Assembly: GCA_964016885.1 (NCBI GenBank)
Contig: OZ024743.1
Span: forward strand, 315,518,001-315,582,000
Origin: Eledone cirrhosa
Taxonomy: Eukaryota
Direction of reading: 5' to 3'
Length of the DNA: 64,000 nucleotides
How positions within the stretch are numbered: position 1 is the first letter of the stretch; every line of letters begins with the position of its first letter. The notes under the pieces are model-generated. The model saw only the letters and a list, made by a program, of their open reading frames with translations, ran no database searches and had not been told where the DNA came from. Below are positions 1 to 60,770 of this stretch, piece by piece. Made by a program: the position numbers and the translations under genes.

Positions 1-881
1 CGATCTGTACTACTGGGGTTGTACCCTTTAAGGGTAAGGAGCCCATCATCACGGTACAATCCACCACCGAATGCAGGAAACATATCAGTGAGTTTGGCTA
101 TTAGGAATAATCCTATAAGATCTGTGACCTCCGCCGAATCCGTGGCGCCCATGCTGACGTCGAAGGGTGAGTCGGGAGCTCTTTTTATCCATTTAGAGTC
201 GTCAAAGAGTAAGACTGTCTTCCTGGCGTGGAGGATGATTTTTCTTTCCTGGTCGGTGATGGGCACAAGTGTTTCGGCGAAGTCCAAGGCGGCAGTAAGT
301 AGCGGTAAGGTGATTGAAGCATAGTAGCTCTCTATGTCGAACTGTATGAATTTAGTGTCTCGTTTATCTTCCATATTGCTGAACCATGAGATTACTTCCT
401 GGGTGTTGATCCATAGGCTAAGTCGGGCGTGTTGCTTGACTTTTGGTATCACGCGGTCTAGGATTTTTTTGCTGATTCTCCCTATGTCGGACTTCGTTGG
501 GTTAATAAGCCTGATAGAGGGTTTACGGTCAAAATCGGATTTATGGTCCTTCAGTGTGAAGTATGGTGTCCGTGGGTCTAGAGGTTCCGTGCGGTCGGCG
601 ACCCCGAGGCTGGAGGTAATTTGTTGTCCATCTCGATTTATGTCCTCGATGCAAGAGTGGTTGGCCTTTTTATACACTTTGATCATATATGGAATTACCC
701 CTTGAGAAGATCGGCTATTTAAATACCAGGATAAATTTTCATTTAGTCCAGAATTAGCCGTCGAAACGGCTTGAGCTCAGCTGTCGGGGTCTTACTGGTT
801 CCTATTACCCACTCTACTACCCCAAGTATTGAGTACTTTAGTGCGTTATGGTCCACCTGGTTCCTTACCACATTTCCTTCG

Positions 882-882
<1 letters not shown>
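1..882 (-). mobile_element. Penelope-like element (Hydra-clade-like): RT fragment running off the window start, plus inverted pseudo-LTR at ~691-882
   Basis: Minus strand translates as ...YFTLKDHK...RLINPTKSDIGRISKKILD...FIQFDIESYYASI...FDVSMGATDSAEVTDLIGLFL...GGGLYRDDGLL. It is closely similar to 19010-19215. It is followed by an oppositely oriented HHR-bearing terminal repeat ending in (TA)n. Confidence 0.9.
697..790 (+). ncRNA. Type I hammerhead ribozyme, U3-A8 core variant (family A)
   Basis: ACCCC | TTGAGAA | stem II GATCGGCTA...TAGCCGTC | GAAA | stem III CGGCT-TGAGCTC-AGCTG | TC | GGGGT. Confidence 0.75.
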
Positions 883-926
<44 letters not shown>

Positions 927-17137: not shown

Positions 17138-17169
<32 letters not shown>

Positions 17170-17171
<2 letters not shown>

Positions 17172-19935
17172 AAAAATTAGGACACCGACGCCAGAGCTCA
17201 AGCCGTTTCGACGGCTATTTCTGGACTAAATTAGAATTTTTAGCCTAGTGAATAAATAGCCGAACTTTTCAAGGGGGTACTTCCTTATATGGGAAGATTG
17301 TAGTTGTCAAGAGGATTGGTGAAAATTTGTTGCAAACACAAATAAGTCTTATCGTGGCATTTGGTGGGAGGTGGGGGTGGCTGAACTTGCCTGTAGAACA
17401 ATAGGGGAGTGACAGGAGCGGTCAAGCGTTGAAAGTGATATGTATACAGCAGATTCTGAGGATAGAGTATGAAGTGGAGGAGGGAGGTTATGGAATAGGT
17501 CAATCTAATGAGGGTAGGGGACAATAAAAGATAATAGAACGAAATAAAAAAATATATAAAATTAGATAGTGAGAAATGAATAAAAAAAATCACAATGCTA
17601 TCTTACAATTACAGGTTAATAAGTTGAGAAAAAACTAGTAGAAAAAACTAGTAGAAATTGAGTCAGAACTGATACAGAATTAAAAGGATTTTAACACGTC
17701 TGCTATAAGTAGTTAGTAAAACGTATTCAACGAATACTATCTTAAGATTACAGGGGTGGGGGAACTGATGCTACAGAGGCCCGATGGGCTGCATCAGGAT
17801 AGGCGAAGGGGAAAAGCAGACGAGGAAGAAAATAGGGGTGGAAGGAAGTGATAGGATGAGACAGGGGGAAGAAGAAGACAAAGAGGAAAAGAAAAGAAAA
17901 GAGATACATCTACCTAAGTAAGCTGGAGTTTCCCTAACTTATTCGGCAAGTAGGGGGGTATCAGCCCTTGTCTACGGGTCGTTATGGGGTTTGAGGGCGA
18001 GGTAAGTCCTACGCAATCTGTGTTTGCATGTGGTTACCAGTTCCTCTTTCCTGTTTAGGAGTTGGTCATTTGAAAACAGCATTTGTAATGTTTCCTCAGA
18101 GCATAATTTACACGGACGGCGTCCTCCCGTGTAAGAGTTAGATTTGGACAGTAAGCTCCAAGTGATATTGTCGGTTATCTTGAAGGTCCCAGATGTGGCC
18201 CGAATGTGTAGTGGCATGTCGCTCGATCGGGTTTCGGAAAGTATGTCGGTGTTGGTAGAGCCGGGTCTTGAAGTCACACGCGGTTAATCCTATATAAGCT
18301 TTGTTGGACGTGTCCGTCCTCACGTTACACTGGTAGATCACGTTACGTTCTCGGAATTTGTTGTTGAGGGGGCACGTAGATCTATCAGGGCAGTTTCACC
18401 TCCTGGTCGGCTGTCCACTGATGGTTATTTCTTCCATAGGGGTTGAGTTTTTTTGTTGTTTGAGGAGACGACGTTTTGTGCGAAGTTAGGTGTGGTGCTG
18501 TAGGAGAGTTTGGTGGTGTTTTTGTTGATTATGTTGTGGTAGCAGTGTTGTAGTGGAAAGTGTTTTTCGAGGAGTCTAAAGAAGATTTTCCCGATAGATG
18601 TTGCCACCTCGGTATTATGGGGAGGATTGAACCACGTTACGTTGCGTGAGCGGCGGTGTCGCCTGGTGGATCCGCTAAGGGAAGCTGGATAAAAGGTTAT
18701 TTCCTCCCGGAAGCCACTCCGCTTGAGGGCCTGATTGTAATGAGCCGCGTGTTTGTCTAATATCTGCTCATTAGCGGACAAACGAGATATGCGGAGGGAG
18801 ATATTTTTAACCAGGTTATTGGTGATGTGTCTAGGATGGTTAGAGCGGCAGTGGATGTAGTGCAGGTTGTTGTTTGGTTTCCTGTATGGGTAGTACAGAT
18901 CATTTTCGAGGTTACGGGTAACGTCCAGGAAATTGACTTGGGTTAGGGACGTTTGTAGGGTGATTTTAAATCCTCAGTCCCGGAAGAAGTTGCTTAGTTG
19001 TTTACGGACCCGGTCTGTACCACTGGCGTTGTACCCTTTGAGGGTGAGGAGCCCATCATCCCGGTACAATCCACCGCCGAATGCAGGAAACATTTCGGTG
19101 AGTTTAAATAGTAGGAATAATCCTATAAGATCTGTGACCTCGGCCGAATCCGTCGCGCCCATACTGACGTCGAAGGGGGAGTCGGGAGCTCTCTTCATCC
19201 ACTGGGAGTTGTCGAAAAGTCTCGTCTGCTTTTCCCCCTCGCTTACCCCGATGCAGCCCATCGGGCCTCTGTAGCATCAGTTCCCCCACCCCTGTAATCT
19301 TCAGATAGAATTAGACGAATACGTTTTGCTAACTACTTATAGCAGACGTGTTAAAACCCCTTTAATTCTGTATCAGTTCTGGTACTACTCAATTTCTACT
19401 AGTTTTTTCTATTCTCAACTTATTAACCTGTAATTGTAAGATAGCATTGTGATTTTTTTTATTCATTGCTCACTATCTAATTTTATATATTTTTTTATTT
19501 CGTACTATTATCTTTTATTGTCTCCTACTCTCATTCAATTTACCTATTCTATATCCTCCCTCCTCCACTTCATACTCTATCCACAGAATCTGCTGTAAAC
19601 ATATCACTTTCAACGCTTGACCGGTCCTGTCACTCCCCTATTGTTCTACAGACAAGTTCAGCCACCCCCACCTCCTACCAAATGCCACGATAAGACTTAT
19701 TTGTGTTTGCAACAAATTTTCACCAATCCTCTTGACAACTACAATCTTCCCATAAAAGGAAGTACCCCCCTTGAAAAGTTCGGCTATTTATTCACCAGGC
19801 TAAAAATTCTAATTTAGTCCAGAAATAGCCGTCGAAACTGCTTCAGCTCTGCAGTCGGGATCATACTTTTTCCTATTTCCCACTCTACTACCCTAAGTAT
19901 TGAGTACTTTGGTGCGTTATGGTCTATCTGGTTAC
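17170..19935 (-). mobile_element. 5'-truncated PLE (Hydra-clade-like): RT C-half plus GIY-YIG (17972-19220), 3' pLTR (17170-17824), inverted pLTR (19221-19935)
   Basis: GGGLYRDDGLL, WFNPPH, IYQCNV...YIGLTACDFKTRLYQHRHTF, CKLCSEE...LLNRKEELVTTCKH. ~650-bp inverted repeats with (TA)n on both sides. HHRs at -17182-17279 and +19766-19860. Confidence 0.92.
19766..19860 (+). ncRNA. Family A hammerhead, U3-A8 core
   Basis: CCC TTGAAAA GTTCGGCTATTT...AAATAGCCGTC GAAA CTGC-TTCAGCTCT-GCAG TC GGG. Stem III differs from the 697-790 copy but remains paired. Confidence 0.75.
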
Positions 19936-19950
19936 TTACAACAATTCCTT

Positions 19951-20027
<77 letters not shown>

Positions 20028-20030
<3 letters not shown>

Positions 20031-21215
20031 TTAGTATATCTACCAACATATGTATACAGATATATACTCATGCTAGCAAATATATATGTTATGTCTTAGT
20101 ACCTTTGTGGTTCTATGCAGGGGGATGCACAACAATTATATGAAAGACGTAAAATAAGAAAATTTTAAAAATTAAAATTAAAATTAAAATTAAAATTAAC
20201 TTACTAAAATTTTCACTCCAACTAATTAGTTTCTGTAAGGGAATAAATATAGTTACGTAATGTAACTATAGAAAAGTCCTTACGTCATCAGAGAGTCTAT
20301 TCTCAGCTAAGTCCCCAGGCAATGCGCGGACACTAGGAACCCATATAAAAATAATAATTCAGTGGATGGAACAAAGCTAGCGGGGACTAAATTCCATGGC
20401 ACTGAAAAAATTCACTGCCTACTTGGTCAGTGGCAAATTCTAAAGAATCAATCACGTGACACTGAGGTTAATCAGTGAGGAGGGGGGTGGTATTATGACA
20501 AGAACCTCACTACTACCATGAACCATAGCAGTAAATGTTGGCAAGTTTCGCTCAACAAATAATTTGGAGATAAATAACGTATCTATATTTATTCCCTTAC
20601 AGAAACTAATTAGTTGGAGTGAAAATTTTAGTAAGTTAATTTTTAATTTTTAAAATGTTCTTATTTTACGTCTTTCATATAATTGTTCTACATCCCCCTG
20701 CATAGAACCACAAAGACTAAGACATAACATATATATTTGCTAGCATGGGTATACATCTGTATACATATGTTGGTAGATATACTAATTCTCTATATTTATC
20801 TCCAAATTAGTTGTTGAGCGAAACTTGCCAAAATGTACTGCTATGGTTCATGGTAGTAGTGAGGCTCTTGTCATAATACCACCCCACTCCTCACTGATTA
20901 ACCTCAGTGTCACGTGATTGATTCTTTAGAATTTGCCACTGACCAAGTAGGCAGTGAATTTTTTCAGTGCCTTGGAATTTAGTCCCCGCTAGCTTTGTTC
21001 CATCCACTGAATTATTATTTTTATATGGGTTCCTAGTTTCCGCGCATTGCCTGGGAACTTAGCTTAGAATAGACTCCCTGATGATGTAAGGACTTCTCTA
21101 TAGTTACATTACGTAACTATATTTATTCCCTTACAGAAACTAATTAGTTGGAGTGAAACTTTTAGTAAGTAAGTTAATTTTTAATTTTTAAAATTTTCTT
21201 ATTTTACGTCCTTCA
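20028..21215. mobile_element. Family G ~534-bp retrozyme-like unit: one minus copy plus a permuted ~1.2-mer plus copy; HHRs at -20215-20296 and +21073-21154
   Basis: ACTCC CTGATGA TGTAAGG...CCTTACA GAAA CTAATTAG TT GGAGT. atttattcccttacagaaac recurs at 20587 and 21121. Confidence 0.85.
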
Positions 21216-27970: not shown

Positions 27971-29254
27971 CTTAAGGTTTGTTGGTTCACCACTGGATAG
28001 AACTGGTCATTCCGTATGGTCAATCCTGGTGTAATATTGTGAAGAGTACTCAACGCAGTGCAGTTCACCCATCTTCGTTTGTGTAGTTGGTGGTGCGAAT
28101 ACGGAGTTAATTATAAATGAAATAAGAGGAGGCTGGACTGGTGTAAATCCTTGAAAGGTTTATTATACTATGATCATTTCCATGACTGGGTTCCATATGA
28201 ATCCGGTGATATCATCAGGTATTGGAATATAACAAAGGAATATGTAAAAAGCCATGCGTCCGAAATACCATGGGTCCGAGAAACCAGAGACAGAGAGGGC
28301 GGCTGACCAACTAGCTTCACAGCCAGCCGCCCTCAAAGTGTTGGCAACCGAAAACTACCAGTGAATATCTGGTAAGGGGGCGCAGGCCTATCATGTACTA
28401 CCACCACTTCGTCAAAGAAAAAGGGGAAGAAAGAAAGAAAGGGAGAAGAAGTGTAGTGTAAGGGTCAAACTACATTCATGTTAGAAAATGCCGCGAAAAA
28501 AATGCTACCCAAAGAATCTATAGTGGGTGTCTGTATGGTCTAATGTGTGAACCGAAGATTGAAACGCTAAACTTATGTTGCGAGTTATAGGATGAAATAA
28601 TTTAAATTAAAAATATTATATTGCAAAATGGTAAATTGAAAAATATTTAACTCTTATCGAGATAAATTTAAAAAAACAACAAAAACAATTGTTCATATAA
28701 GACTCTCTCCGTAAGTTCGTTAAATAAATAAATCTCGCTACCTCTATTTTTGAATTTACCATTTTGCAATATAATATTTTTAATTTAATTTATTTCATCC
28801 TATAACTCCAATCTTCGGTTCACACATTAGACCATACAGACACCCACTATAGATTCTTTGGGTGGCATTTTTTTCGCAGCATTTTCTAACATGAATGTAG
28901 TTTGACCCTTACACTACACTTCTTCTCCCTTTCTTTCTTTCTTCCCCTTCTTCTTTGACGGAGTGGTGGTAGTAAATGATAAGCCTGCGCCCCCTTACCA
29001 GATATTCACTGGTAGTTTTCGGTTGCCAACACTTTGAGGGCGGCTGGCTGTGAAGCTAGTTGGTCAGCCGCTCTCTCTGTCTCTGGTTTCTTGGACCCAT
29101 GGTTTTTCGGACGCATGGCTTTTTACATATTCCTTTGTTATATTCCAATACCTGATGATATCACCGGATTCATATGGAACCCAGTCATGGAAATGATCAT
29201 AGTATAATAAACCTTTCAAGGATTTACACCAGTCCAGCCTCCTGTTATTTCATT

Positions 29255-33734: not shown

Positions 33735-36527
33735 AGGTTAAACAAGGTTCAATGAATAAATCAAAGAATTAGTTTTACAATAGATCGGAAGCACTCAACT
33801 GTAATGGTTTTCCGGCGTTATTAATATTAATTCAAAATATTAACAAAAATAGAACTTCTTGTCATCAAGTATATTTTATTATACATAGTTCAGAGGTACT
33901 GAGATAACTTCAAAATAAATAGTAGAATTCGAAATCAACATACATTTAACGATAATGAATATAATAACACTAGCAATATTAATACTAACAACAACATCAC
34001 AATCAATAGAACATTTTGGAGTACTAATAATGATAATGTAAATAGTACAATTTATAGTAATAACAATAAATCGAAATGTAATTGTAGAAATAGACCAGAT
34101 TGCCCTCTGCAAAATAACTGTCTGGATAGCAATGTGATATATAAATGCACCGTAAAAGCAAATATCATCACATAAAACTATATGGGTGCAACTTCTTCGA
34201 CATTTAAATCAAGATTTGCGAATCACAAATGCTCTTTTTCGAATCTTATTATTTATTTGAATTCTTCAATATAACCTAACTGCAACCTCTGTACCATGGA
34301 GACTATTTTAATAATTACTAATTGTGAAAATTTAATTAACAAAAAAAGTGAATTATTCTCAAACTGCCTTAATAAAGCTTTGTCTACATTCCAAGCCTCG
34401 CAGAAAGTCAGGAAAAAACACTAAATAAACAGGTTCTAATTTTTGACGTCTCTTATCAACTGTGTACCTAAAACGTTATAATAGATAATAAAACTTTAAT
34501 AATTTTTATTTTTTATTCTTTTATGATATTATTAATGTTAGATTAAAGGGTCCTGTTTGCGTATAGAAACATATTATTTGTTAACATGATCTCTTGAGGA
34601 ATGTGCATATCTTTTGATTGTTAAGATATATTTAATTTTTCATTGGGATTCTTGTATATTTTTTAAATATATGGTTTATACGCTTAACAGTTATAATGTA
34701 CCGTAAATCATGCATGCATTTATGTTTTTGTATTCATTTGGAGTATGATTAACGATTCAGGAAGTTTGACTTATATATTTTATTTATATATATATTTACG
34801 GTATATGCGTCACACACCATACTAGTCGACAAACTTTTTTCCACTTAACTTGATGTAAAACATAAATTATAACATTACTAACAACGATTGTACTAATTAT
34901 TTATTATATGTATATCGATCACTAATATCTGGAATACTCTATTTATATTTGAATAAATCTGTATATCTAGTATAATAACATATCTAGTATAGTTACATTT
35001 AAATACTTTAATGACTTTCTTGTGTTATAATCGTTAAATATTTTCTAAATATTTTCTAAATTTTCAAAGTTATATAACGATTATTATTGATAAGTACTTT
35101 AGATACTTTAATGATTTTCTAAATATTTTCTAAATTTTCTAAGTTAAATTTTCTTATTATTTAATTTAATTTAATTAAATTTGGGTTACCTTCCGGTCAA
35201 TGAAATCCTTACGCTTTCTCTTTCTCATGTTTGCAGACACATTATACTACTATATAAATTTATTTTAAAAAAAAAAATTTAAGATCGCAGACAATTCACT
35301 TTTTTACTTTGAAGCAGATCCTTATCCGTATGATTCACGAAGTTTGACTTTTTATATTTATAGTATATATGTGTTACATGACCTTATTATTATAATAATT
35401 GATCTAAAACCTTAATTTTTAACAATATTATCAGTAACTTATTTATTGTATTATATTATGTTATATATAACTGATAGGTATCATCTTAATCTTTAGACAA
35501 TATAATCTGTGTTTATATTTAGACAAATACATATATCTAAATTACTAATAAACTTTTTTAAGTTTTAAGTTTAATTATAAAGCCTTTAATGCTTTAAGGC
35601 ATTCTAATTGTTTATAATGCGAATTATCTTCAATATAATATAAATAATTAAATATATTATAATAAAATTAATAAGAATTACCTTCGTGAGGATGAAAATA
35701 GCATGTCTTCTCTCTCATGTTTGCAATTAGTTTAAATATGAACTCATAACATATGATTTTATGAATTAAATATGATAGTACACTCTAATATTAATACAAA
35801 TATGTATAAACCTTTATAGCCTGAAATATTATACACTTTGATTAATTCATTACTCTGAACTAACTTAAATGATTTGAAAGTTAACGGTTAACCGGATACG
35901 TTTGGATAGTATATATAACTAATTAACTAAGGAAATTAACCTTTATTAATTACACCCAGTTATATTTATGATTTAGATTGATGAATATTTCTAGATAATT
36001 CAATATTTCAAAGATTTGAGTTTACTCTATCGCATAACTATGCCCAAATGTATAGTTATGTATAGATATATATAATTCATCCCTCCGTATAATTAATCCG
36101 CTTTGTCTCTCTTTCCTTGATCAATTCTCTTTTGCCCTCTATACCTCTACTAGCTATATTTTCCCCTCATCTGTTTTCTCTGTCTTTCTTTTTTTCTTTC
36201 CTCTTTCTTCAATAATTATTTGAATCTCTAACAGTTATGTAAATTACTGTTATGTATTTTTAAGATTTCTTACATGCACCCTCTGTACTATATGTATTAT
36301 ATGTAAGTTTTTCATGTCTCAATCTTAAGGTATATACATATTGAGATTTGTCATATCTTAATCACTACCATGACTGAATCTTAACCATCTACTATGTCAG
36401 GGTATGTCATACATCATCTTGTTTTATCTGATGAGGACGTACTGTTGAAGTTAGCTCAGTACCTCTGAAATATGTATAAAAAAATATACTTGATGACAAG
36501 AAGTTCTATTTTTGTTAATATTTTGAA

Positions 36528-37184: not shown

Positions 37185-40100
37185 AAAACAATAAAATAAA
37201 TTTACGATATATTAAAATACATTAAAATATGCATATAACGTCACAGAGATATATAAAAAAGAGGGGAAGGTACATGTATTCGTGTGTTATACCAGACATG
37301 GGGAGTATGATATGCACACTTAGGTCTGTGTACGGAACAAACAATAAGTGTTCCAAAGTGGAACACGTGGAGAGTATGTATTCACGATTGAAGAGGTACA
37401 CATTCATGGAGGCGCGTAGCCTGGTCACATTGGAGTATGCCACTGTGGATGAGGTGTGTTGTCCTATAGGTGCAGGGTACTTGACTGAACGACCGTAGAA
37501 TCCGGGTCAGCCTGTCCCGGCGCAGGCGATGTTCCTTCCTAAGGTGACGTGTGTAGTCAGGTGTGCATCTTGGGTTATTTTGGTTTACCCCACGGGACAT
37601 ATAATGAAATCAGGGTATGGTGTCTGGTCCCTTAAACCCGTTTCGTCGCTCAGGTCGGTGCGTGCTCCGACGCATACCCTTAGCCTGGGCTTCCCGGAGG
37701 ATTCCATGCGGCGAATGTGCACCTTCTCTGGTGTCTGCAAGTCATGATAATTTCAGATTTCAGGTTGACCGCGTCATCTTTCAGTCTGACTATCTCCATG
37801 GCCTCGTATAGGCATAATCTGCACTTTCTACTTCCAGCCGAGTATGCATTCGCGTTCCGAACGATACTCCAGTCAAGGGCGTACGAGGTGCCTTGGTCTT
37901 TCAGGTCCCACATCAGGTCCGCTAACCTAGTGGAGTGCCTCTTGCATCGGTCCTTGAAGGAGTTCGTGTGGTTATACATCCGCGATTTAAAAGTCGTGGA
38001 TGTTGAGCTGATGTAGGTGCGTTTTATATTTGATTTCTAACCACACATTTGTATACCAAGTCCTTCGTCAGGCATTTTCCCTGTAGGGGGCACTGGATGC
38101 CCGTTCTGCAGTTACATGTTCTGTTGTTACTTCGTTCGCTTCTGACGTCTGGCCCTCTCACGCTTCTCGGGGTGTTGTTCCACCGGCACGGTTATCTCCC
38201 CCACGGAAGTCGTTCCCTCCTGGCGTTGGATTGTATTATCTTTCGCGAGCGTGTCGGCCACCTCGGGGGGCGGGTTGTTATTTGAAGGCCGGTCACCGAA
38301 TGGTCCTCCACGCTCCGATAGACGGTCATTCTGCCGCCGCGGTTGACGGTCGATGTTCCCCATCTTTACCGCGTTGGTTTTAGCCATGTAGTCGGCCATG
38401 CTAGGTGCCGTGGAGAAGGAAACTTCACCGTGTGGCGGTTGAAGATTGTGTGGTATTTGTTCGATGGCGGAAAGCACTCGTCTAACGCTTGGAATAGAAG
38501 ACCTGGCACGTTGCTGCGTACATGCTTGGAGTATGGTGCATTAAACCATGTAACGGCCTTGGATCTAGTCTTGTTCTTTCGTGTGTGTGTGTGTAGTCTT
38601 GTGAGTGTGCCCTGGGCCTGATGCCCATCTCTGGTTTTGCCCGTCCATAATTACGTATCCTGTGTTGTCTCTATTTGTGTTCCTACTGCGAGCGTCAAGG
38701 TTATGTCTTTCACTTACTAAGGTATTTCGTTCTATATTGTTGGCTCTACTGCTAATCACTTTAAATTTAAGAGGTGCTGCTGTCTGTGCTATATTACTAC
38801 TACCAGGCCGGGTGTTCTCTCTAGCGGGTGCCATTGCCGTACTTGTCGTTGCTCTGTCCCTAGTCCCTGTTACCGCGGAGTATGCAGTGTGCGTGGTGCC
38901 AGGCCCATGCCTACTTGTACTAGGTGGTCTAGCTCCCAAGGGTGCCTTTCTCCTTCCTACTGTCGGTCGTGTGTCATTAATTCTTTCTACGTTAGGCACA
39001 AGGCCAGCAATAATCCAGTGTATTACTGGTACTTTATTTTACCCACCCCGTAAAGATGAAAGGCAAAGTTAACCTCGGCGGGATTTGAACTCAGAATGGC
39101 AAGGGCCGTAACTCTATACGTCAAAGCTTAACGTCCGACCTTCTACCGATACTGCCACGGCTGAGTTACTACTCGTGTTCTTAGAGACTGCTACCGGGTC
39201 ATTTCTCCTACCTATGGAAGTGCCCTCGCTATTGTCGTATCCGCATGCCTCGGCGCATGGCTCTTCCCTGTCTGGGGTATACACTATGGTGTCTGTGTAA
39301 ACGGCCCTGTGCAGTACCTCATTATAATATTTGACGTGCTGTTTAAATACGTCTGCGTTGGCCGACAGGGTGGATACGCTTTTGGATACCCCTTTAACTA
39401 TAGCTTCTATGAGTGACCTGGCGTGATTCGATTGCCTGTTCACATATTGCAGGTTCTCATTGGGCTTGTGATAAGGTCGGTGGATGCCAGTATTCATTTC
39501 CAGGGTGACGTCCAGGAAATTCACCGTCTTAGTGCTAGGATCTATCGTCATGGATACGCCGTGCTGCTTAAAAAAATGCGATATGCGCTTCCTCATACGC
39601 TCCATCTGACTGGGGTTTAGGGAACGGAAGGTGAAAAGTGCGTCGTCTCTATGTATTCCTCCGCCAATCCCCGGGATCTCCTCTGCTAACCTATGGAGGA
39701 GATAGATCCCCACCAGATCGGTCACCTGCGCCGAGTCGCTCGACCCCATGGTGATATCGAAACTGTCGGGTCTGTCCCCCCTCTCCCATAACTTGTCTTC
39801 TGGCTGCTACTATTAGGTTAGTCTCCTCCCTAGTGAGGTTGGACCTGGCCATGGCGCTCATGAGGGCCTTGTTCACTAATACAGGAGATGCTGACCTGTA
39901 GTAATTATCTATGTCTAATTGAATAAAATATAGCTGCTGCTTGTTACCTACTAACGAGAACCAGTCAATTACCTCCTTAGTGGAGGTCCATAATCTAAGA
40001 CTAGTTTTGTTTCGGTAGTATCGGTGTACCGGTAGTATCCTGTCTATGATATTCTTGCTGGTCCTACCTATGTCAGATTTTGAGGGTGCTATTAACCTAA

Positions 40101-40905
40101 CCGGTAGGTTAGTTCTAAAGTCTAATTTATGGTCCTTAATAGATATCCGAGGTTTTCTAGGTACATATAATTCGGTCCTATCATCTAATCCTAACCGTCA
40201 TTATTTTTATGGTCGTGGCGTTAATATTATCTAAGTTTGTCTGTCCTGTGGTCCTGTATTTTTTCCTAATCTCTTTCCCGATGCAGTCGTTGTATGTAAA
40301 ACAGTCAAGCTTGTATAGATTACCAGTTTTGTCCGAGGGCACAAGTAAATCCGGGCATTCTTCCATGCATTTGATTGTGGACCTGAGACTCCTGAGGTAT
40401 TTCGTACGTCGTGAACTTGATGTTACGGACGATGTTGATGATACGATTCTCAAATTCTTCCAGCTGTGCGTTATGTGGCGGGTGTCGTCTAGATCTAAAT
40501 ATCCGCTTTAGGCGGTCCTGGAGGGTATCGGGTGAGTTTTGTTGTCCTTCTGTCGTGGTGAAATGCGCGCCATCTCATGTGGCGTATCAGTAAGCCCATG
40601 TAGGTGCTGTCAGACGGGATCTGGATGTCCTTTAGGGAGGAGAGTAATTGAATTTTTCCATGGGGAATCGCTTAAGCGCTCTACTTGTGGGGGAGCGTAG
40701 TATATATGAGAGTTTAATGGTAGCTATGATGCTTCCATAGGCGGTATTCCAGTTGAGCACTGTGTTCTTATAAAACGAAAAATCAGTGATGCATCTGGAC
40801 TCACTTTATTGTGTGTTATAATTGTTTCGCCGGCAGATAGCTCGAGACATGATCATTGTATGGATCTGTCTGATTCTAGATCTGCAGGTTATTCGGACGC
40901 ATGCA
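37185..40905 (-). mobile_element. Near-full-length but decayed Hydra-clade-like PLE (RT plus GIY-YIG), with upstream HHR-like motif at 40810-40901
   Basis: RHMRWRAHF, LLVPSDKTGNLYKL, DITMGSSDSAQVTDLVGIYLL, GGGIHRDDAL, VNFLDVTL, WFNAPYS, CNCRTGIQCPLQGKC, CRLCLYEAMEI...NLKSEIIMTCRH. Multiple frameshifts. Confidence 0.9.
38977..39160 (-). mobile_element. SINE inserted inside the PLE ORF linker
   Basis: Full-length match to the SINE copies at 51878-52065 and 54421-54600. It introduces stops in the PLE frame. Confidence 0.85.
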
Positions 40906-41584: not shown

Positions 41585-43160
41585 GGAGATAGATAGATAG
41601 ATAGATACATAGATATGTTTCTTTTATTTGCCACTAGGGCATCAAAAGTGGGACAAGTACAAAGGGGGGAGTTTACACAAAAAGGCGTCCTCAATAAGGA
41701 GGAGGCAATAACAAAATATAAAAATAAAATAAGATATAACAAAAAATAAAATTTATAACAAAATCCTCAATAGAGAGGAGGCGCCTTGGGGGGTCGCACA
41801 CACCCCCGAAAAAAGTGTGCAACCCTTCTCCTCAGGAGCACAGAGAAGGGGTGCTCCCTTGGTCTTTCATCTTCCTCACCTATAGTCTGATGTAGAGCGA
41901 AGGCCCATTCACACGGGCCATTCTCGCCACATTCACCCATCTTTCATAGAAACGGCTGGGGTGCAGCACCTCTCTCTCCATCCTGATCCTTCTTCCGAAA
42001 TGATATCGGAAGAAACGGACCAGTTGTTGGCCAGAGAGAAAGGTGCCTGACCTCAGTCCTTTCAGACGCGTCCACCATACAACCTCTTTCGCCATGGCTA
42101 TTACGCACAGAAACACCGCCTCTGCTTCATCTTTGAAGGGGGGAGGCGCCTTGATCATTACAATAGACTCGGTGGTCAACCGGATCGGTCCCACCCTTGA
42201 CAGCAGTTGTTCGACATAGCCCCACAGATCGGCTACGCCCGAGCAGTGTACCAATGCGTGTGCAACGGTTTCCTCGTCGCACACGCATCTGGGACAGATC
42301 TTTTTGGCGGGGTCCCTACCCGGGCGCCCGTGTCTGTAGAGCCTTTCTCGAACGGGTAAAGCTCCTCGGTAGCACTGCCAGGCCAGGGACTTCTGGAAGT
42401 TGTCCATAGGTCCCGGGCTGAATGTCCTACCGAACAGGCCGGCCAGTTCGTCCTCCTCCATGTCTAGGGCTTCTCCGAGGGCGTCGTCGCACCTGCTGCG
42501 TACCAGCCCTCTATAGAATGTTGCGGTGGAGTCTCCACTGATAACCGGATCCGCCTGCCAGAGGGCGGTGAGCGCCTGGGCACACTCAGTGTGCCAGGCG
42601 CCCAGTTTTCTCGGTCTTTGCTTGACCCACGATTGCAGCTCGGTGAGTGAGACGAGTCTGGGAAAGGTTCGTCTCACAAACGAGGCCCACACCGGTTGTC
42701 CGGTGAGGAATACGTAGAGGTGCCGAAGCCTTAATGCGTCTTTACGCATCATTAGCCACGGCATCCCCAGCCCTCCTTTCGAAGGGTGTTGACAGCAGAT
42801 GGATCTCCTCACCATAGGAGCCCGCCTCTTCCAAAGGAATTGGAAGAGCGCGCGCTCCATCTTGGTGAGGGTTTCCCTTGGGCAGGGCACTACGGTCAGG
42901 CGGTAGTAGATGACGGACGCTATGTAGGTGTTCGCCACCTCCGCCCGACCTTTCAGGGATAGTTTGCAACTGCCCCACTTCTGGGTCAGTGCAAACACCC
43001 TGTTCGTAACCTCCGCCCAGTTTTTCTCCACCTGGAGGTCCGGTCCGAACCAGACCCCGAGCAACTTCACCGGGCCCTCCGTCCAGCGTCCGACGCCGCC
43101 ATCGGAGGGCATCGGTCTGCCCCTCCACGTGCCGAGTTGCAAACCGATCGACTTTAGATA
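41585..43160 (-). mobile_element. 5'-truncated Tx1/L1-like non-LTR retrotransposon (RT C-terminus plus zf-RVT-like Cys/His motif; ORF ~41880-43155) with (TCTA)n tail
   Basis: VKLLGVWFG...LSLKGRAEVANTYIAS...KGGLGMP...CPRCVCDEETVAHALVHC. The 3' UTR ends AAATAAAAGAAAC + (ATCT)n. Confidence 0.85.
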
Positions 43161-43442
43161 CATAGATAGATAGATAGATAGATATGTTTCTTTTATTTGC
43201 CACCAGGGCATCAAAGGTGGGACAAGTACAAAGGGGGGAGTTTACACAAAAAGGCGTCCTCAATAAGGAGGAGGCAATAACAAAATATAAAAATAAAATA
43301 AAATATAACAAAAAATAAAATTTATAACAAAATCCTCAATAGAGAGAAGGCGCCTTGGGGGGTCGCACACACCCCCGAAAAAAGTGTGCAACCCTTCTCC
43401 TCAGGAGCACAGAGAGGGAGTGCTCCCTCGTTCCTTCCTCTT
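43161..43442 (-). mobile_element. Second, 3'-UTR-only copy of the same Tx1-like element, in tandem
   Basis: Near-identical to 41590-41875 including the (TAGA)n tail. Confidence 0.85.
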
Positions 43443-44559: not shown

Positions 44560-46035
44560 AATGTACTCTCGCTACGTTGATGATATAAACATCGTAGTAA
44601 AAACACCCCCACTAGAGAACAGTCAGGAATTAGAGAAAATCACCATGGAAAGCATCCAGCAAATAGCTAACTCCATCTACCAGAGTATTAGAGTTACTAT
44701 AGACTACCCAAGCAAACATCCCAACCATCGATTACCTGTACTAGACACAGAGCTCTGGTTAGAGACCATTAATAACAAAAAACAAATCCTCCATTCCCAT
44801 TATGCCAAACCCATGACTTCCAAATATCTGATCCACCGAAACTCAGCTGTTTTGGATCACACCAAAATCAACATACTGATGGCGGATTTAGTACGGGTGA
44901 TGAGAAACGTGTCCCGCATGTGCAACCCCAAAGAACTAGAGAGACACATACAACACTTCATCCACCGTATGCAGTTCTCTGGTTACAAAATCAGAGAGAT
45001 AAAATAATCAGAGTATATAGAGAAGCCAGAACCAAATGGGAAAAATGGTAAATAATGATACAAATGGGACCTTCCCCTTTATAGGAGCAAATGTTGGAAT
45101 AGAATAGAAAGAACTAGGAATAAGGTTAATAGAATAAACTCATGGTATGATAGCAATAAATACCAGAGAGTAATGTTCATCGATACAACGCCTAGAGATG
45201 AATTAGCTTACAAATTTAGAAGGGCCTAGATAAACTTAAACTAAATATTAATATAGTAGAAAGACCAGGTACCTCCATAAAAACACTTATTAGTAATACA
45301 TACTCTTTTCGAAGACCTCCCTGTATAGATAAGAAATGCATAATCTGTAAACTAAGCCCCCATATTAACTGTAAAACTAATAACATAGTATATAGTATAA
45401 GATGTACTGAAGGACAATGTAAAGATAAGAATATAGTGTACATAGGTGAGGCAGCTCGTAGTATAGGAGAACGATTAAATGAACACTGGCGAGAGCTTCA
45501 AGATAGAAAAGATTCAGCAGTACTCCACCAATATGCTAAAATAGAACATAAGGGCAAATTAGAGAACATAGAAATAAAAATAAAATCTACACACAGAAAA
45601 GACGCAATGTTTAGACAAATCATAGAGGCAATAAACATAAATGAACTCCAACCAAAATTAAATAGAAAACATGAATGGAATAGCAACATCACAACTTACA
45701 ATTAAGGACAAAATGAAAACACACACACACATAGAACAAACAACCAACCAGTAACATGTAAATAAACAATAAATAAACAAATAAAAACACACACAGACAC
45801 CGGGATGTAACACATGCGCAAACTAAGCAAACAACACACACAAAAACAAGATGGCGTAGAACAGAACAAAGGAGAGGAACAAAAACAAAGAAAAGAATCC
45901 CCAGTCACTGATGAGGTCACAGAATGTGTGACGAAAGAACTTTGACAATATATGAACAACCGTCCGGTTGTGGAACCAACCAACCGGAAATTTATAAATT
46001 CTTAAATTTATAAATTTAATTTATAATAAATTGGA
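44560..46035 (+). mobile_element. 5'-truncated PLE of a different clade (Nematis/Neptune-like): YVDD RT end, thumb, GIY-YIG, 3' pLTR
   Basis: RYVDDI...LPVLDTELW...HYAKPM...QFSGY; NCKTNNIVYSIRC..CKDKNIVYIGEAARSIGERLNEH...RQIIEAININELQPKLNRKHEW. Confidence 0.85.
45904..45946 (+). ncRNA. Minimal type I hammerhead (family F), canonical core
   Basis: GTCA CTGATGA G GTCACA-GAATG-TGTGAC GAAA GAAC TT TGAC. Confidence 0.8.
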
Positions 46036-47206: not shown

Positions 47207-49532
47207 AGATCAAAAGATGGTTAAAAGAGTTCCAAGTATTTTATTATGCGCATTTCAAAAACAAATATCATCATGGGATGATATTTGCGTTCTCATCAGA
47301 TAAAATAGGGAGACATGATATGAAACTTAAAAAACACTTGAGAGCAGTGTATTGTTAAATCAACATATGAAAAATAAAGTAAGATAGATATATGAGATTG
47401 GGAAAAACAGGAGGGGGGGGGGTAAGAAAAGGTAAGGAAGAGGAAGAAAGAAAATAAAGTATGACGGGGGAGGAGTATAAGAAGGAAGGATGAGAGAGGA
47501 GGTGAAATGAGTGATAGAGAGAGAGAAATAGCCTTTACAACTGAGAAAACATTGTCTCACAGAGAGAAATTAAAAATCCGTTGAAAGATAATAGATAATT
47601 TTAAAAGATTTTGAAATTAAAAGTTAATGAGGTTTATGAATGGTGATGTTTATGATTAAAGAAAAAGGAATTAAGAATAGTATTTATTTAAGGGTTTAAT
47701 AATATGTGCGAAAAAAATAATTTATTAATATGTATTATTAAAATAAAAATATTAAGGATATAATGTGAAAGAAGGAGAGATGGAATGAATTATGAACTTA
47801 GAGGAATTAGTTAGGGTTTAAGTTTGTTTTTTATGTTTTGTAATATGTAAAAGTAAATAATAGGTTTAATACGATTACCGAAGGAGAGAAGAAAGAAGAA
47901 AATTTAAGGAGGAAAACATATCTAACGTCAAAAAGTATATATGTTTACAAAATGTTCTAATGGTAATATTATTATATATTTAAAAAAATATAGTTTCTCT
48001 GGCCAACAATATAAGGAAAAATGGAAAATGCTATAGTGAGTAATAATATGAATTAAGAAGTAATTGAGAAGTAAAAGTTACAGATTAACGATTAGAAATT
48101 AAAAAAGAAAAAAGGAAGAAAGGAAAAAGGATAAAAAGAAGAAAGATGGGGGACCTCTAACGACATAGATTGAGTAAATTGTATAATATAATATACAGAA
48201 ATAAGGTAGAAAGATGGGTATATTTGTAAAAGATATAAAAGCCTTTGAGAAAAGAAGATTTTAAACTAATTAGGTATTGAGATATTAGCTGTATACTTTA
48301 TGGAAAGTTCTATGGGATTTATGCAAGCAGAGCAAAAATAAATCCGTACGTCTATTTATTATAGAATTAAAATTAGATATAATGGTAAATTTCTCGGCTA
48401 AGCAGAGATTACATGTTCTGGATAGGGAAGAATTTCGCTAAGGAAAGGCGTTGCAAACCTTCCTCCAAGAGATGTTATAGTTAATATTTTTGTCTTTTAA
48501 GGACCATATGAGTTCCGAGAGTGCCGTGTTAGTTCTTTTAAGTTGGTATTTAAAAGACGATTTCTAATCATAAAATCTTGCTTTAAAGGAAGTGGAAGTG
48601 GAACCGAAATAGGTAAAGGAATTAGTACCAGTTATAATCTTACATTCATACACTAAGTTTTTATCAAGACATTGTTTATTAAGAGGACATTTAGTTCTAA
48701 CAGGGCAATTACAATTACGATTAGAGACATTAACAGAGTTATTAACAAGTGACCTAGTATTATTTATAGAATGAATTGGATTGGAGAAGTTATTTACGAT
48801 AGGAACTATAGTTTCCTGATTTAGATTGGTATTATGAACATTCGTCGTATTTAAATTTACTGAATCTAGCCTAGAGTTAACATTGACGTTGGGTTTACTA
48901 TTGCTATTATTATGACGCTCGGTTGGGTGGATATAATTTATTATTTAATATTTTATTATTGTGTTTAGAGATAATGTTAGAGATGTTGGAAGTGGGGGAA
49001 TAAGAGAATTTGATTGTATGTTTGTTAAAGATCTGGCTATAGATATACGAGGGAGGGAAGCATTTATCTAAGGCCCTAAAGAATAGTTTAGGAATATTAC
49101 TAGTAATAGATAGAGAAAAAGGAGCATTATACCAAATCATATTTTTGTATCTAGGTCTTTTATTTAAGTTATTGGAATGTTCATAATTAACAATTTTACT
49201 ATAAGTCCTTCGATGATTGGTTTCTTTACTGTATTTAAATTTATCAGGATAACCGGCTTTGGAAAGCGCATTATTATAGTAATTGGCATTAGCGTCGAAG
49301 ATAACTTTATTAGAGGATAGATTTGAGATTCTTTTTTCAATATTACTGACTATAGTATTTTTAACGTTAGTGGGGTGGTTAGATTTAAAATTAACATACT
49401 TTAGATTCTCATTGCCTTTATGGTAAGGGTAATATAGGCCAGTGTCAAGATTAAGGGATATATCCAGGAAGTTAGCTAGTTTGACGTTGTTATCAAATTC
49501 AATTTTAAGGTTATGCTGCTTATATAGATCAA

Positions 49533-56759: not shown

Positions 56760-56762
<3 letters not shown>

Positions 56763-56930
56763 CGTTGTTGAGTTCTCTAGTCTACGGTTTTTCATAGATT
56801 GTCTGTGAATATACCATCTTTTTTTGAATTCCCCAGCCGTAGAACCTATGTAGTGCCATTCTAAGTTGCCCGAATTCATAGCACACAGGTACACTATACT
56901 TGATTCCAGGCATCTGCTTTGTGGTGGGCA

Positions 56931-56986
<56 letters not shown>

Positions 56987-57960
56987 CACTAGAAAACAGT
57001 TGCCTAGAATCAAATACAGTGTACATGTGAACTATCAACTCGGGTAACTTAGTATGGCACTACATAGGTTCTACGGCTGGGGAATTCAAAAAAAGATGGT
57101 ATGTTCACAGACATTCTATGAAGAACTGTAGACTAGAGAACTCAACAACGCTAGCCAATAAAATCTCGCAGCTTAAGGAGATGAACCAAGAATACAGGAT
57201 TCGTTGGTCGAAATTATCGGGAGCAAAGGCCTACAGTGCTGGAATGTCCCACTGCTGACTTTGCAATATGGAGCTGTTTCCATATTTTAAAGTATTATAA
57301 AATGCTGCTTAACAGCACAATAGAACGATCAATTTTCTGTAGGTACAAAGCAGCTACTAAATTCGCAAATTTCAAACTAGCATGATTCGATCTAGCAATC
57401 CCATAATTCAAGCTGAACCACCCTGAGTCTATTATAATAACTACATACCACACCACTATTATTAGCTGTCAACTGACCAACTAATCACTAAATCAACATC
57501 ATAAATCTCCTAACCTTTCTCTCACTCTCTCTCCCTAAAGCTATTTCACGCCCACTCTCTGTACCCTATCCTATATCTCTTCCCCTTTCACTTAATTTCT
57601 AATTTATTATTTTTATCTTTTATCTGTTATTTGTTATTATATTTTTCTTCCTGAAATTTAACCACTACATATGTATATATTTAATATTTATTTTCATATT
57701 AATAGTATTTATACCCTCATCACATCTCTATACTTACTCACCACTATAATTTTAACCACCACCATCACCACCACTATTATCAACAATTGTATTATGATCC
57801 TATTTTTTCACGTATATATATTTTTTTACTTATTTTTTTATCATCTTCATTCTAACTTCTTTATTATTATTTTTTCTTTTTCTTTTTTATTATTGATGTT
57901 GTTCGGATTCTCCGTTGTATCTATAAATTCAAACACCGCGTGTAAATTATTTAGTATTCC
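56760..57960 (+). mobile_element. PLE GIY-YIG fragment and 3' UTR (+56982 onward) with an inverted duplicate (-56760-56933)
   Basis: CPLENSCLESNTVY...WHYIGSTAGEFKKRWYVHRHS...WSKLSGAKAYSAG..C*LCNME. The mirror copy lies across a (TA)n tract. Confidence 0.8.
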
Positions 57961-60497: not shown

Positions 60498-60557
<60 letters not shown>

Positions 60558-60559
<2 letters not shown>

Positions 60560-60770
60560 CGAAGGAAATGTGGTAAGGAACCAGGTGGACCATAACGCAC
60601 CAAAGTACTCAATATTTAGGGTAGTAGAGTGGGTAATAGGAACGAGTGGGACCCCGACGGCTGAGCTCAAGCCGTTTCAACGGCTAATTCTGGACTAAAA
60701 AAAAATTTTTTTTTTTAAAAGCCGTCAAAACGGCTTGAGCTCAGCCGTTGGGGTCCTACTCGTTCCTATA
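60558..60770. mobile_element. Solo truncated fold-back of the family A pLTR (HHR 3' halves only)
   Basis: Reverse complement of 745-882, followed by a short inverted copy. Confidence 0.8.

Follow-up and report, generated by a model that had tools for sequence, protein, structure and literature searches.

Hammerhead ribozymes in which the C3-G8 pair of the core is exchanged for U3-A8 have already been published for Penelope elements, including some 1,300 matches in the Penelope-like elements (PLEs) of Schistosoma, according to the available text of PMC4209133. In vivo cutting by Penelope hammerheads, and its purpose, is stated to be an open question in the accessible parts of PMC8557442 and PMC11167929; the latter also describes cleavage as protein-assisted and reports that mutating the PLE hammerhead does not reduce insertion in vitro. 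For a type III hammerhead scanned exhaustively by mutation, the accessible portion of PMC9901934 gives low activity to every single and double mutant of the C3/G8 region, with the exception of a G3-C8 swap, which alone gave rescue. The end repeat of Drosophila Penelope holds an internal promoter (PMC2377424, in the part available). A C3·A8 core is not addressed in the available sections of PMC3884650, PMC7151607 or the 2026 retrozyme preprint, and a search that covered largely the openly accessible literature turned up no report of an amplified PLE core of the C3·A8 type or of insertions whose junctions lie at the cut site.

Here we describe a PLE family from Eledone cirrhosa, starting from a window of 64,000 nucleotides (the whole stretch of DNA that was analysed; contig OZ024743.1, positions 315,518,001 to 315,582,000 of the forward strand) and extending to copies throughout the genome. 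The U3-A8 swap is already known; of greater interest are an interval in which the 3-8 pair was mismatched and later likely re-paired, and a newly observed footprint of insertion junctions at the predicted cut site. On balance, we think it probable that this is a type I PLE hammerhead in which A8 is fixed and position 3 switches between U and C by subfamily, and which would cut at a low level in vivo while likely being dispensable for most copying.

The element and its copies in the window

The motif at 697-790 (+), a member of the youngest subfamily, A, is a hammerhead of type I, in that three helices surround the core and stem I is open. Stem I (697-701/786-790, ACCCC/GGGGT) leads into the core TTGAGAA, U3 to A9, at 702-708 (U3 at 702, A8 at 707), followed by a long stem II at 709-762 (G10.1 at 709, C11.1 at 762), GAAA at 763-766, stem III at 767-770/780-783 (CGGC...GCTG) with the palindromic loop TGAGCTCA, and the GUC triplet at 783-785 (T784, C785), with the predicted cut after 785. 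The three-way hammerhead junction is the minimum-energy fold of 685-810, at a stability equal to that of shuffled sequences or lower (z -0.17) and not greater. The distal part of stem I, with its bulge (GGAA/TTCC), is conserved across subfamilies. As had been predicted for standard searches, the Rfam hammerhead models missed the motif, with no match at E<=10 on 650-880, and no hammerhead was among the 150 of 197 Rfam matches listed for the whole window.

The motif lies in an inverted, 5'-truncated end repeat (pLTR) at 675-885 (+), whose 80-nt tail (806-885) terminates in (TA)n. The main arm of this insertion has its RT region at positions 1-674 (-), a stretch that matches the intact copy L032 at 99% and begins at about residue 141; leftward, the insertion continues beyond the window through a GIY-YIG domain as far as L031:6816(-), where a second hammerhead, also U3-A8, is located. 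The 697 copy is itself 5'-truncated, and the prediction of an autonomous family is borne out by L032, judging from its intact 719-aa ORF (P0002), flanked by two hammerheads 3,118 bp apart. The unit is 3,118 bp long at L032 and 3,523 bp at L038. P0002 is a single ORF in which RT (YRDD) precedes a C-terminal GIY-YIG domain (VIYQC...YIG), these motifs being read by eye; it had no match in a Pfam scan, and its closest database proteins are 39-54% identical and mostly unnamed. Its motifs SDKTG, RWR (for RWK), CNCPDRSIC, CNLC and CKH match the published description of the Hydra clade, and insertions of the family lie in (TA)n, as a partial tandem plus an inverted 5' copy with a tail. On the strength of these ORF motifs and of the (TA)n and insertion structure, set against that description, we assign the element to the Hydra-clade PLEs, in agreement with the original prediction of a PLE hammerhead. 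The family ends 20 and 100 nt beyond the predicted cut site (805 and 885 at the 697 copy), which fits two RT start sites, as expected from the available text of PMC11167929. The length of the 3' UTR varies from about 680 to 1,160 nt among near-identical copies (L032:5740-6422 compared with L031, L036, L038 and L045); across subfamilies the 3' UTR aligns poorly, while the ORF and hammerhead are still alignable.

Two further cores lie where they had been claimed, both reading TTGAAAA: one at 17272-17266 (-) (U3 at 17272), in the copy at 17182-17279 (-), and one at 19771-19777 (+) (U3 at 19771), in the copy at 19766-19860 (+). The first copy ends the main arm (17167-19220, -) of an older subfamily-B insertion with a broken RT/EN ORF, and the second lies in the tailed, inverted arm (19221-19954, +) of the same insertion; the copies are 92.5% identical and, being two arms of one insertion, count as a single event. 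Both have decayed: in the 17182 copy G opposes G in stem III (CGGC/GGCG) and C opposes T in stem I, and in the 19766 copy proximal stem I is reduced to 3 bp. The statement that all other hammerhead elements are in place in the three copies thus holds for the complete 697 copy and not for these two, and stem III, said to stay paired, does so at 697 (CGGC/GCTG) and fails to at 17182. The CTGC/GCAG form of stem III, which had been offered as paired variation, is private to the 19766 arm, its partner arm retaining CGGC, and the GCAG partner occurs in 1 of the first 100 listed of 287 genomic CTGC arms; the change is a mutation after insertion and not covariation. A short head-to-head insertion of the same family, with a subfamily-E-type 3' signature, lies at 60553-60769; each arm holds the 3' half of the hammerhead only, and one is tailed.

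A second, unrelated U3-A8 hammerhead is found at 56704-56667 (-). It is of the minimal type, with a 4-bp stem II, a palindromic CCGG stem III and a GUA site, and its family has 6,650 copies, the first 100 listed of which are all U3-A7-A8; many form short inverted pairs. With this family and the Schistosoma matches, U3-A8, which had been called a rare natural variant, is not rare in PLEs. C3-G8 hammerhead-like motifs lie at 21074-21153 (+), at 29148-29205 (+) with 28222-28165 (-), at 50689-50613 (-), at 47303-47241 (-) with 4237-4175 (-), and at 45904 (+); they stand mostly shortly 5' of (TA)n and probably mark where other PLE families end. ORF fragments from further Hydra-like PLEs, with 31-45% identity to P0002, lie at 39273-40638 (-), 48303-49527 (-) and 37683-38566 (-), and at 56760-57273 and 34020-34397 (+). 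A 453-aa open frame at 41880-43241 (-), with a zf-RVT match at E 9e-6, just under the Pfam cut-off, is likely a piece of a LINE-type retroelement.

The 3-8 core pair across the genome and its subfamilies

Cores were counted over 3.0 Gb of genome with one 21-nt pattern in exact matches only, A3 or G3 with A8 being left out, and the counts are lower bounds. U3-A8 was found in at least 5,154 cores (75% of the 6,915 counted) and C3·A8 in at least 1,689 (24%); the other 72 do not have A8 (10 C3-G8, 21 U3·G8, 1 A3-G8 and 40 with C8 or T8). The U3-A8 cores are not chance matches, since the reversed pattern had none genome-wide, and the majority core of the family is indeed U3-A8 and not CTGANGA. The pair is Watson-Crick (U-A) in the three window copies and the 5,154 cores, and C·A in the 1,689. 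A8 is therefore fixed and position 3, which may be U or C, is not; the description of U3-A8 as a fixed variant applies to the former position and fails at the latter, where C3·A8 occupies two amplified subfamilies. Of about 1,700 C3 cores 10 have G8, as do 21 of about 5,175 with U3, frequencies that match neutral mutation; because it is equally rare beside C3 and U3, the proposed check for covariation of positions 3 and 8 over genomic copies finds none within the family. A search for a C3-G8 sister subfamily gave 31 matches, about 12 of them true cores and all scattered point mutants, and no such subfamily was found.

The remainder of the core varies little. Position N7 takes all four bases between subfamilies, and U4, G5, A6, A8, A9, G10.1-C11.1, GAAA and GUC are constant in 8 of 8 subfamily majority lines, in all of which G12, A13, A14, A15.1-U16.1 and H17 also agree with a type I hammerhead. 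G7 is present in 95 of the first 100 C3·A8 cores listed, whereas U3 cores carry all four bases at this position. In contigs from two sequencing runs, which are of one sample, possibly the source sample, and hence not independent, C3 amounts to 24-27% of depth and no A8 variant was listed; positions 3 and 7 vary there, and a single letter was listed for each of 4, 5, 6, 8 and 9.

C3·A8 is not noise: two subfamilies, D and E, are defined by it, and each has a UTR and an ORF of its own. A tree of the 3' UTR and hammerhead, with positions 3, 7 and 8 masked (75 rows of 121 collected copies, those omitted having insufficient homologous UTR or being duplicates), and a tree of ORF DNA pieces only, without hammerhead columns (40 rows), agree on the arrangement B (U3) - D (C3) - E (C3) - A3/F/A2/A (U3), and monophyly of U3-A8 (25 copies outside D and E together) was rejected with a p-AU of 1e-47. 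Mean pairwise ORF divergence is 9.2% in B, 7.0% in D, 4.8% in E, 4.2% in A2 and 1.4% in A; divergence between arms is 0-1.4% in A, 1.0-5.2% in E, 1.8-9.9% in D and 2.0-5.4% in B, and by these arm-to-arm clocks B and D overlap in age. When six distant proteins served as outgroup, the root fell among the youngest copies and long-branch warnings were raised, and this rooting was discarded. With the tree unrooted, the path may have run from U3 to C3 to U3 or may have comprised two separate gains of U3 from C3; the youngest lineage, including the 697 copy, likely descends from C3·A8 to a re-paired U3-A8 core, and at least one C3-to-U3 re-pairing would follow from this.

The predicted share of the hammerhead in the fold ensemble, given as medians of secondary structure only and leaving out the two old window copies at 17182 and 19766, is 0.47 in A, 0.003 in E and 0.004 in D, with 0.01-0.06 in A3, A2, F and B (B 0.01-0.05). 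For D and E, folding predictions prefer a stem I that is slipped and inactive. On the way to the 697 copy, the lineage would have passed from C3·A8 to U3-A8 and then acquired changes that favour the hammerhead fold, which is consistent with weak selection for cutting. In subfamily F (L206 and others) the upper part of stem II is remodelled with its pairing kept (GGAT/ATTT to GAAT/ATTC), a paired change at the level of a subfamily.

Insertion junctions, arm ends and the case for cutting

Both arms end within 14 nt of G1.1 in 324 short head-to-head insertions. Junctions were sorted by eye for the first 50 listed of each set. Among the first 50 of the 324 are 25 in which both arms stop exactly at G1.1, separated by untemplated bases that are mostly A or T and, on the cDNA side, mostly A; another 11 join CCCC bluntly to GGGG (0/0, or -1/-1 joined by CG), and 14 reach further, 1 of them symmetrically (at -2). 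When shorter arms were admitted as a control, the first 50 of 410 comprised 18 clean and 10 blunt junctions, 7 in which one arm falls short by 1-3 nt, 11 that are longer and 4 that are unclear. Where both arms were at least 3 nt longer, nearly all of the 420 insertions were joined via the palindromic loop, and about 3 of the first 50 listed had untemplated bases; downstream and further-upstream controls had no comparable peak. In 31 of 37 near-site insertions that were fetched, a tail marks one end and (TA)n the other; in the remaining 6, one of the ends is irregular. The junctions suggest hammerhead cutting and likely record the reverse transcription of cleaved RNA in vivo. The second U3-A8 family, whose site lies in an A run, gave 35 insertions and no readable peak, and a search for cut-site junctions with a C3-G8 control motif (50689) gave no matches.

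Per arm, near-site insertions number 124 of 15,634 in A (21 clean and 21 blunt among the first 50 listed), 59 of 22,986 for D and E signatures together (21 clean and 11 blunt among the first 50 listed, 2 of the clean ones belonging to D) and 12 of 9,726 in B (5 clean, 2 blunt); D alone has about 4-5 per about 4,100 arms, a share estimated from 18 of 100 rows. In these small counts the footprint rate tracks age and not the state of the 3-8 pair, and the idea that C3·A8 lineages lack cut-site junctions proved unsupported, the rate of D being close to that of the age-matched U3-A8 subfamily B. The E tail allele is present in 5 of 5 scoreable clean junctions, on a marker based on just 2 U3 copies. 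Since the footprint is similar in C3·A8 and age-matched U3-A8 lineages, the 3-8 pair may be of little importance in vivo. The choice is between a C3·A8 core that cuts, one that was cut in trans, and ends that are not made by the ribozyme.

Most copies, by contrast, were made from RNA uncut at the hammerhead site, which all long copies retain. The 3' half of the hammerhead occurs 50,438-54,261 times genome-wide against about 6,900 cores, so that about 87% of arms are without the core (6,915 cores against 54,261 arms). Treating the 50,438 3'-half copies as one non-autonomous element was rejected, since their junctions differ from locus to locus. The survey of arm ends covered 97 arms bearing the youngest 3' signature, taken from 30 centre loci and from exact matches within 40 fetched regions. 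In 74 of them the end lies 24-45 nt upstream of the cut site and in none at 46-78, the others ending at 3-23 (12), at 0 (4) or beyond 47 (7). The limit at -45 and the peak at -41/-40 hold for both RT start sites. In L100, L103 and L163-L166, arms skip GAAA and stem III between GCCGTC direct repeats of stems II and III, or are joined there. At the top of stem II (739-748, +), TCATTT (A at 741) and TTAGTC (A at 745) lie 45 and 41 nt before the cut site and coincide with the upper limit and the peak of the short-insertion ends; we take both to resemble the initiator consensus. We infer that these ends are RT run-off at a transcription start inside stem II, with stalling of RT in the stem as the rival account.

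The explanation that we favour, low-level cutting by a mostly dispensable hammerhead, would then run as follows. Transcription likely begins inside stem II, 45 or 41 nt before the cut site, and the 5' copy would thereby lack the core and be unable to cut in cis. The RT of the element would use two nicked strands of (TA)n for priming, one at +20 and the other at +100; run-off at the 5' end of the RNA would yield the short head-to-head insertions, while priming at the 3' copy would yield long insertions retaining an uncut hammerhead, and about 1% of youngest-subfamily arms were likely copied from RNA with a cleavage-product 5' end. Several points count against it: a footprint undiminished in C3·A8 relative to age-matched U3-A8 is unexpected for a strictly pair-dependent cis ribozyme, the blunt junctions are possibly -1/-1 ends joined by CG, the outgroup rooting was unusable, and the second U3-A8 family had no readable peak. 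Both U3-A8 and C3·A8 may also be very slow in vitro, because C3/G8-region mutants are low in activity in the accessible part of PMC9901934. A bolder combination, that the insertions are fossil RNA 5' ends mapping a start within the ribozyme, that they are the first evidence of in vivo PLE hammerhead cutting, and that C3·A8 cut through two subfamilies, helped by protein or by a slipped C3-G7 pair, before being re-paired, is tentative and as a whole rather doubtful.

Three other accounts are unlikely, though each explains part of the record. In the first, C3·A8 is itself active in vivo, as a protein-held protonated C·A pair or through a slipped C3-G7 pair (CUGA-GA plus an extra A before G10.1), and the 3-8 Watson-Crick pair is dispensable. 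The 59 cut-site insertions with C3-lineage 3' signatures (21 of the first 50 clean, 2 in D), at a rate similar to that of B, would be expected, as would the near-uniform G7 of the C3·A8 cores. A transitional U3-A8 group also carries the E signature, however (4 of 22 cores), the numbers for D are very small, D and E inherited G7 as a single state, their predicted folds prefer the inactive stem I, and single mutants at position 3 or 8 are inactive in the available texts of PMC11167929 and PMC9901934. We give no more credence to the second, in which inactive C3·A8 RNAs are cut in trans by co-active U3-A8 cores by way of loop III, which is palindromic, and of stems I and III, which are identical. 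The age overlap of B and D would allow it, the stem III self-duplex is predicted at -26.5 kcal/mol against -5.0 for the hairpin, and metazoan PLE hammerheads have been proposed to act as dimers (PMC4209133, available text); it needs co-expression, however, and E is mostly younger than B.

It is similarly improbable that the ribozyme is vestigial, with either a nuclease or a halt of RT at the three-way junction producing the G1.1 ends, and with the motif retained only as a promoter or RT-binding structure. A footprint independent of the 3-8 state, the large fraction of arms without a core, the amplification of C3·A8 lineages to more than 20,000 arms and the undiminished in vitro insertion of hammerhead mutants (PMC11167929, accessible part) all accord with this. 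An RT stop at stem III would nevertheless leave C17 copied, whereas clean junctions end at G1.1 and their cDNA side bears A, as it would where a template ends; conservation persists in the 5' half of the core, N7 and position 3 alone changing, and position 3 went back to a pairing base. The original prediction of a fixed functional U3-A8 variant, taken as fully functional and required for mobility, is very improbable: three quarters of cores are U3-A8 and the youngest, U3-A8 subfamily folds well, but fixation is already contradicted by the 1,689 C3·A8 cores, which belong to two subfamilies that each have an ORF of their own, and the uncut site of all long copies speaks against a need for cutting in mobility.

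Comparison with known systems

The junctions of short inverted insertions offer a genome-only readout of hammerhead cutting that is usable for any PLE family, and this family provides a natural allelic series (U3-A8, C3·A8, sporadic C3-G8 and U3·G8) on one sequence background. It suggests that a catalytic base pair can shift via an unpaired stage where mobility is independent of it. If the fossil-record reading is true, a compensatory path through C3·A8 has been caught stepwise within one genome, and a core inactive in published mutants kept cutting.

The natural U3-A8 hammerheads of Perreault et al. 2011 (PMC3088659) have the same core swap and are stated, from earlier work, to be active in vitro; an amplified mismatch intermediate, as in the present family, is not reported for them in the available text. 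Among PLEs, the family shares with the Schistosoma mansoni Cercyon elements (Cervera and De la Peña 2014, PMC4209133, in the part available) a type I hammerhead in the end repeat, U3-A8, a palindromic loop III and thousands of mostly truncated copies. Unlike the minimal hammerheads of Cercyon, its stem III is complete (4-5 bp plus A15.1-U16.1), its stem II is about 54 nt long with an internal loop, whole subfamilies are C3·A8, and it has junction footprints, of which none is described for Cercyon in that text.

With the Hydra clade, as described in the accessible part of Craig et al. 2021 (PMC8557442), it has in common a single ORF, DKT, RW(R/K), a CxCX5C linker, a C-terminal GIY-YIG with CxxC and CxH, a (TA)n target, an inverted 5' copy and a tail. 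All 26 of 26 Hydra-clade rows in File S2 of that paper have ctga-n-ga cores and short stems II, whereas the present family has U3/C3-A8; its unit of 3.1-3.5 kb with an 80-nt tail compares with elements generally <3 kb with CUGANGA, these being non-strict traits, and the hammerhead of Hydra-1_oBim differs from that of the present family. Poseidon of Anolis (PAc; Frangieh et al. 2024, PMC11167929, available text) has a C3-G8 core, and none of its reads start or end at the cleavage site, on which the genomic junctions of the present family lie. Both elements have two RT start sites that set the tail, a hammerhead upstream of these sites, and insertion from uncut RNA.
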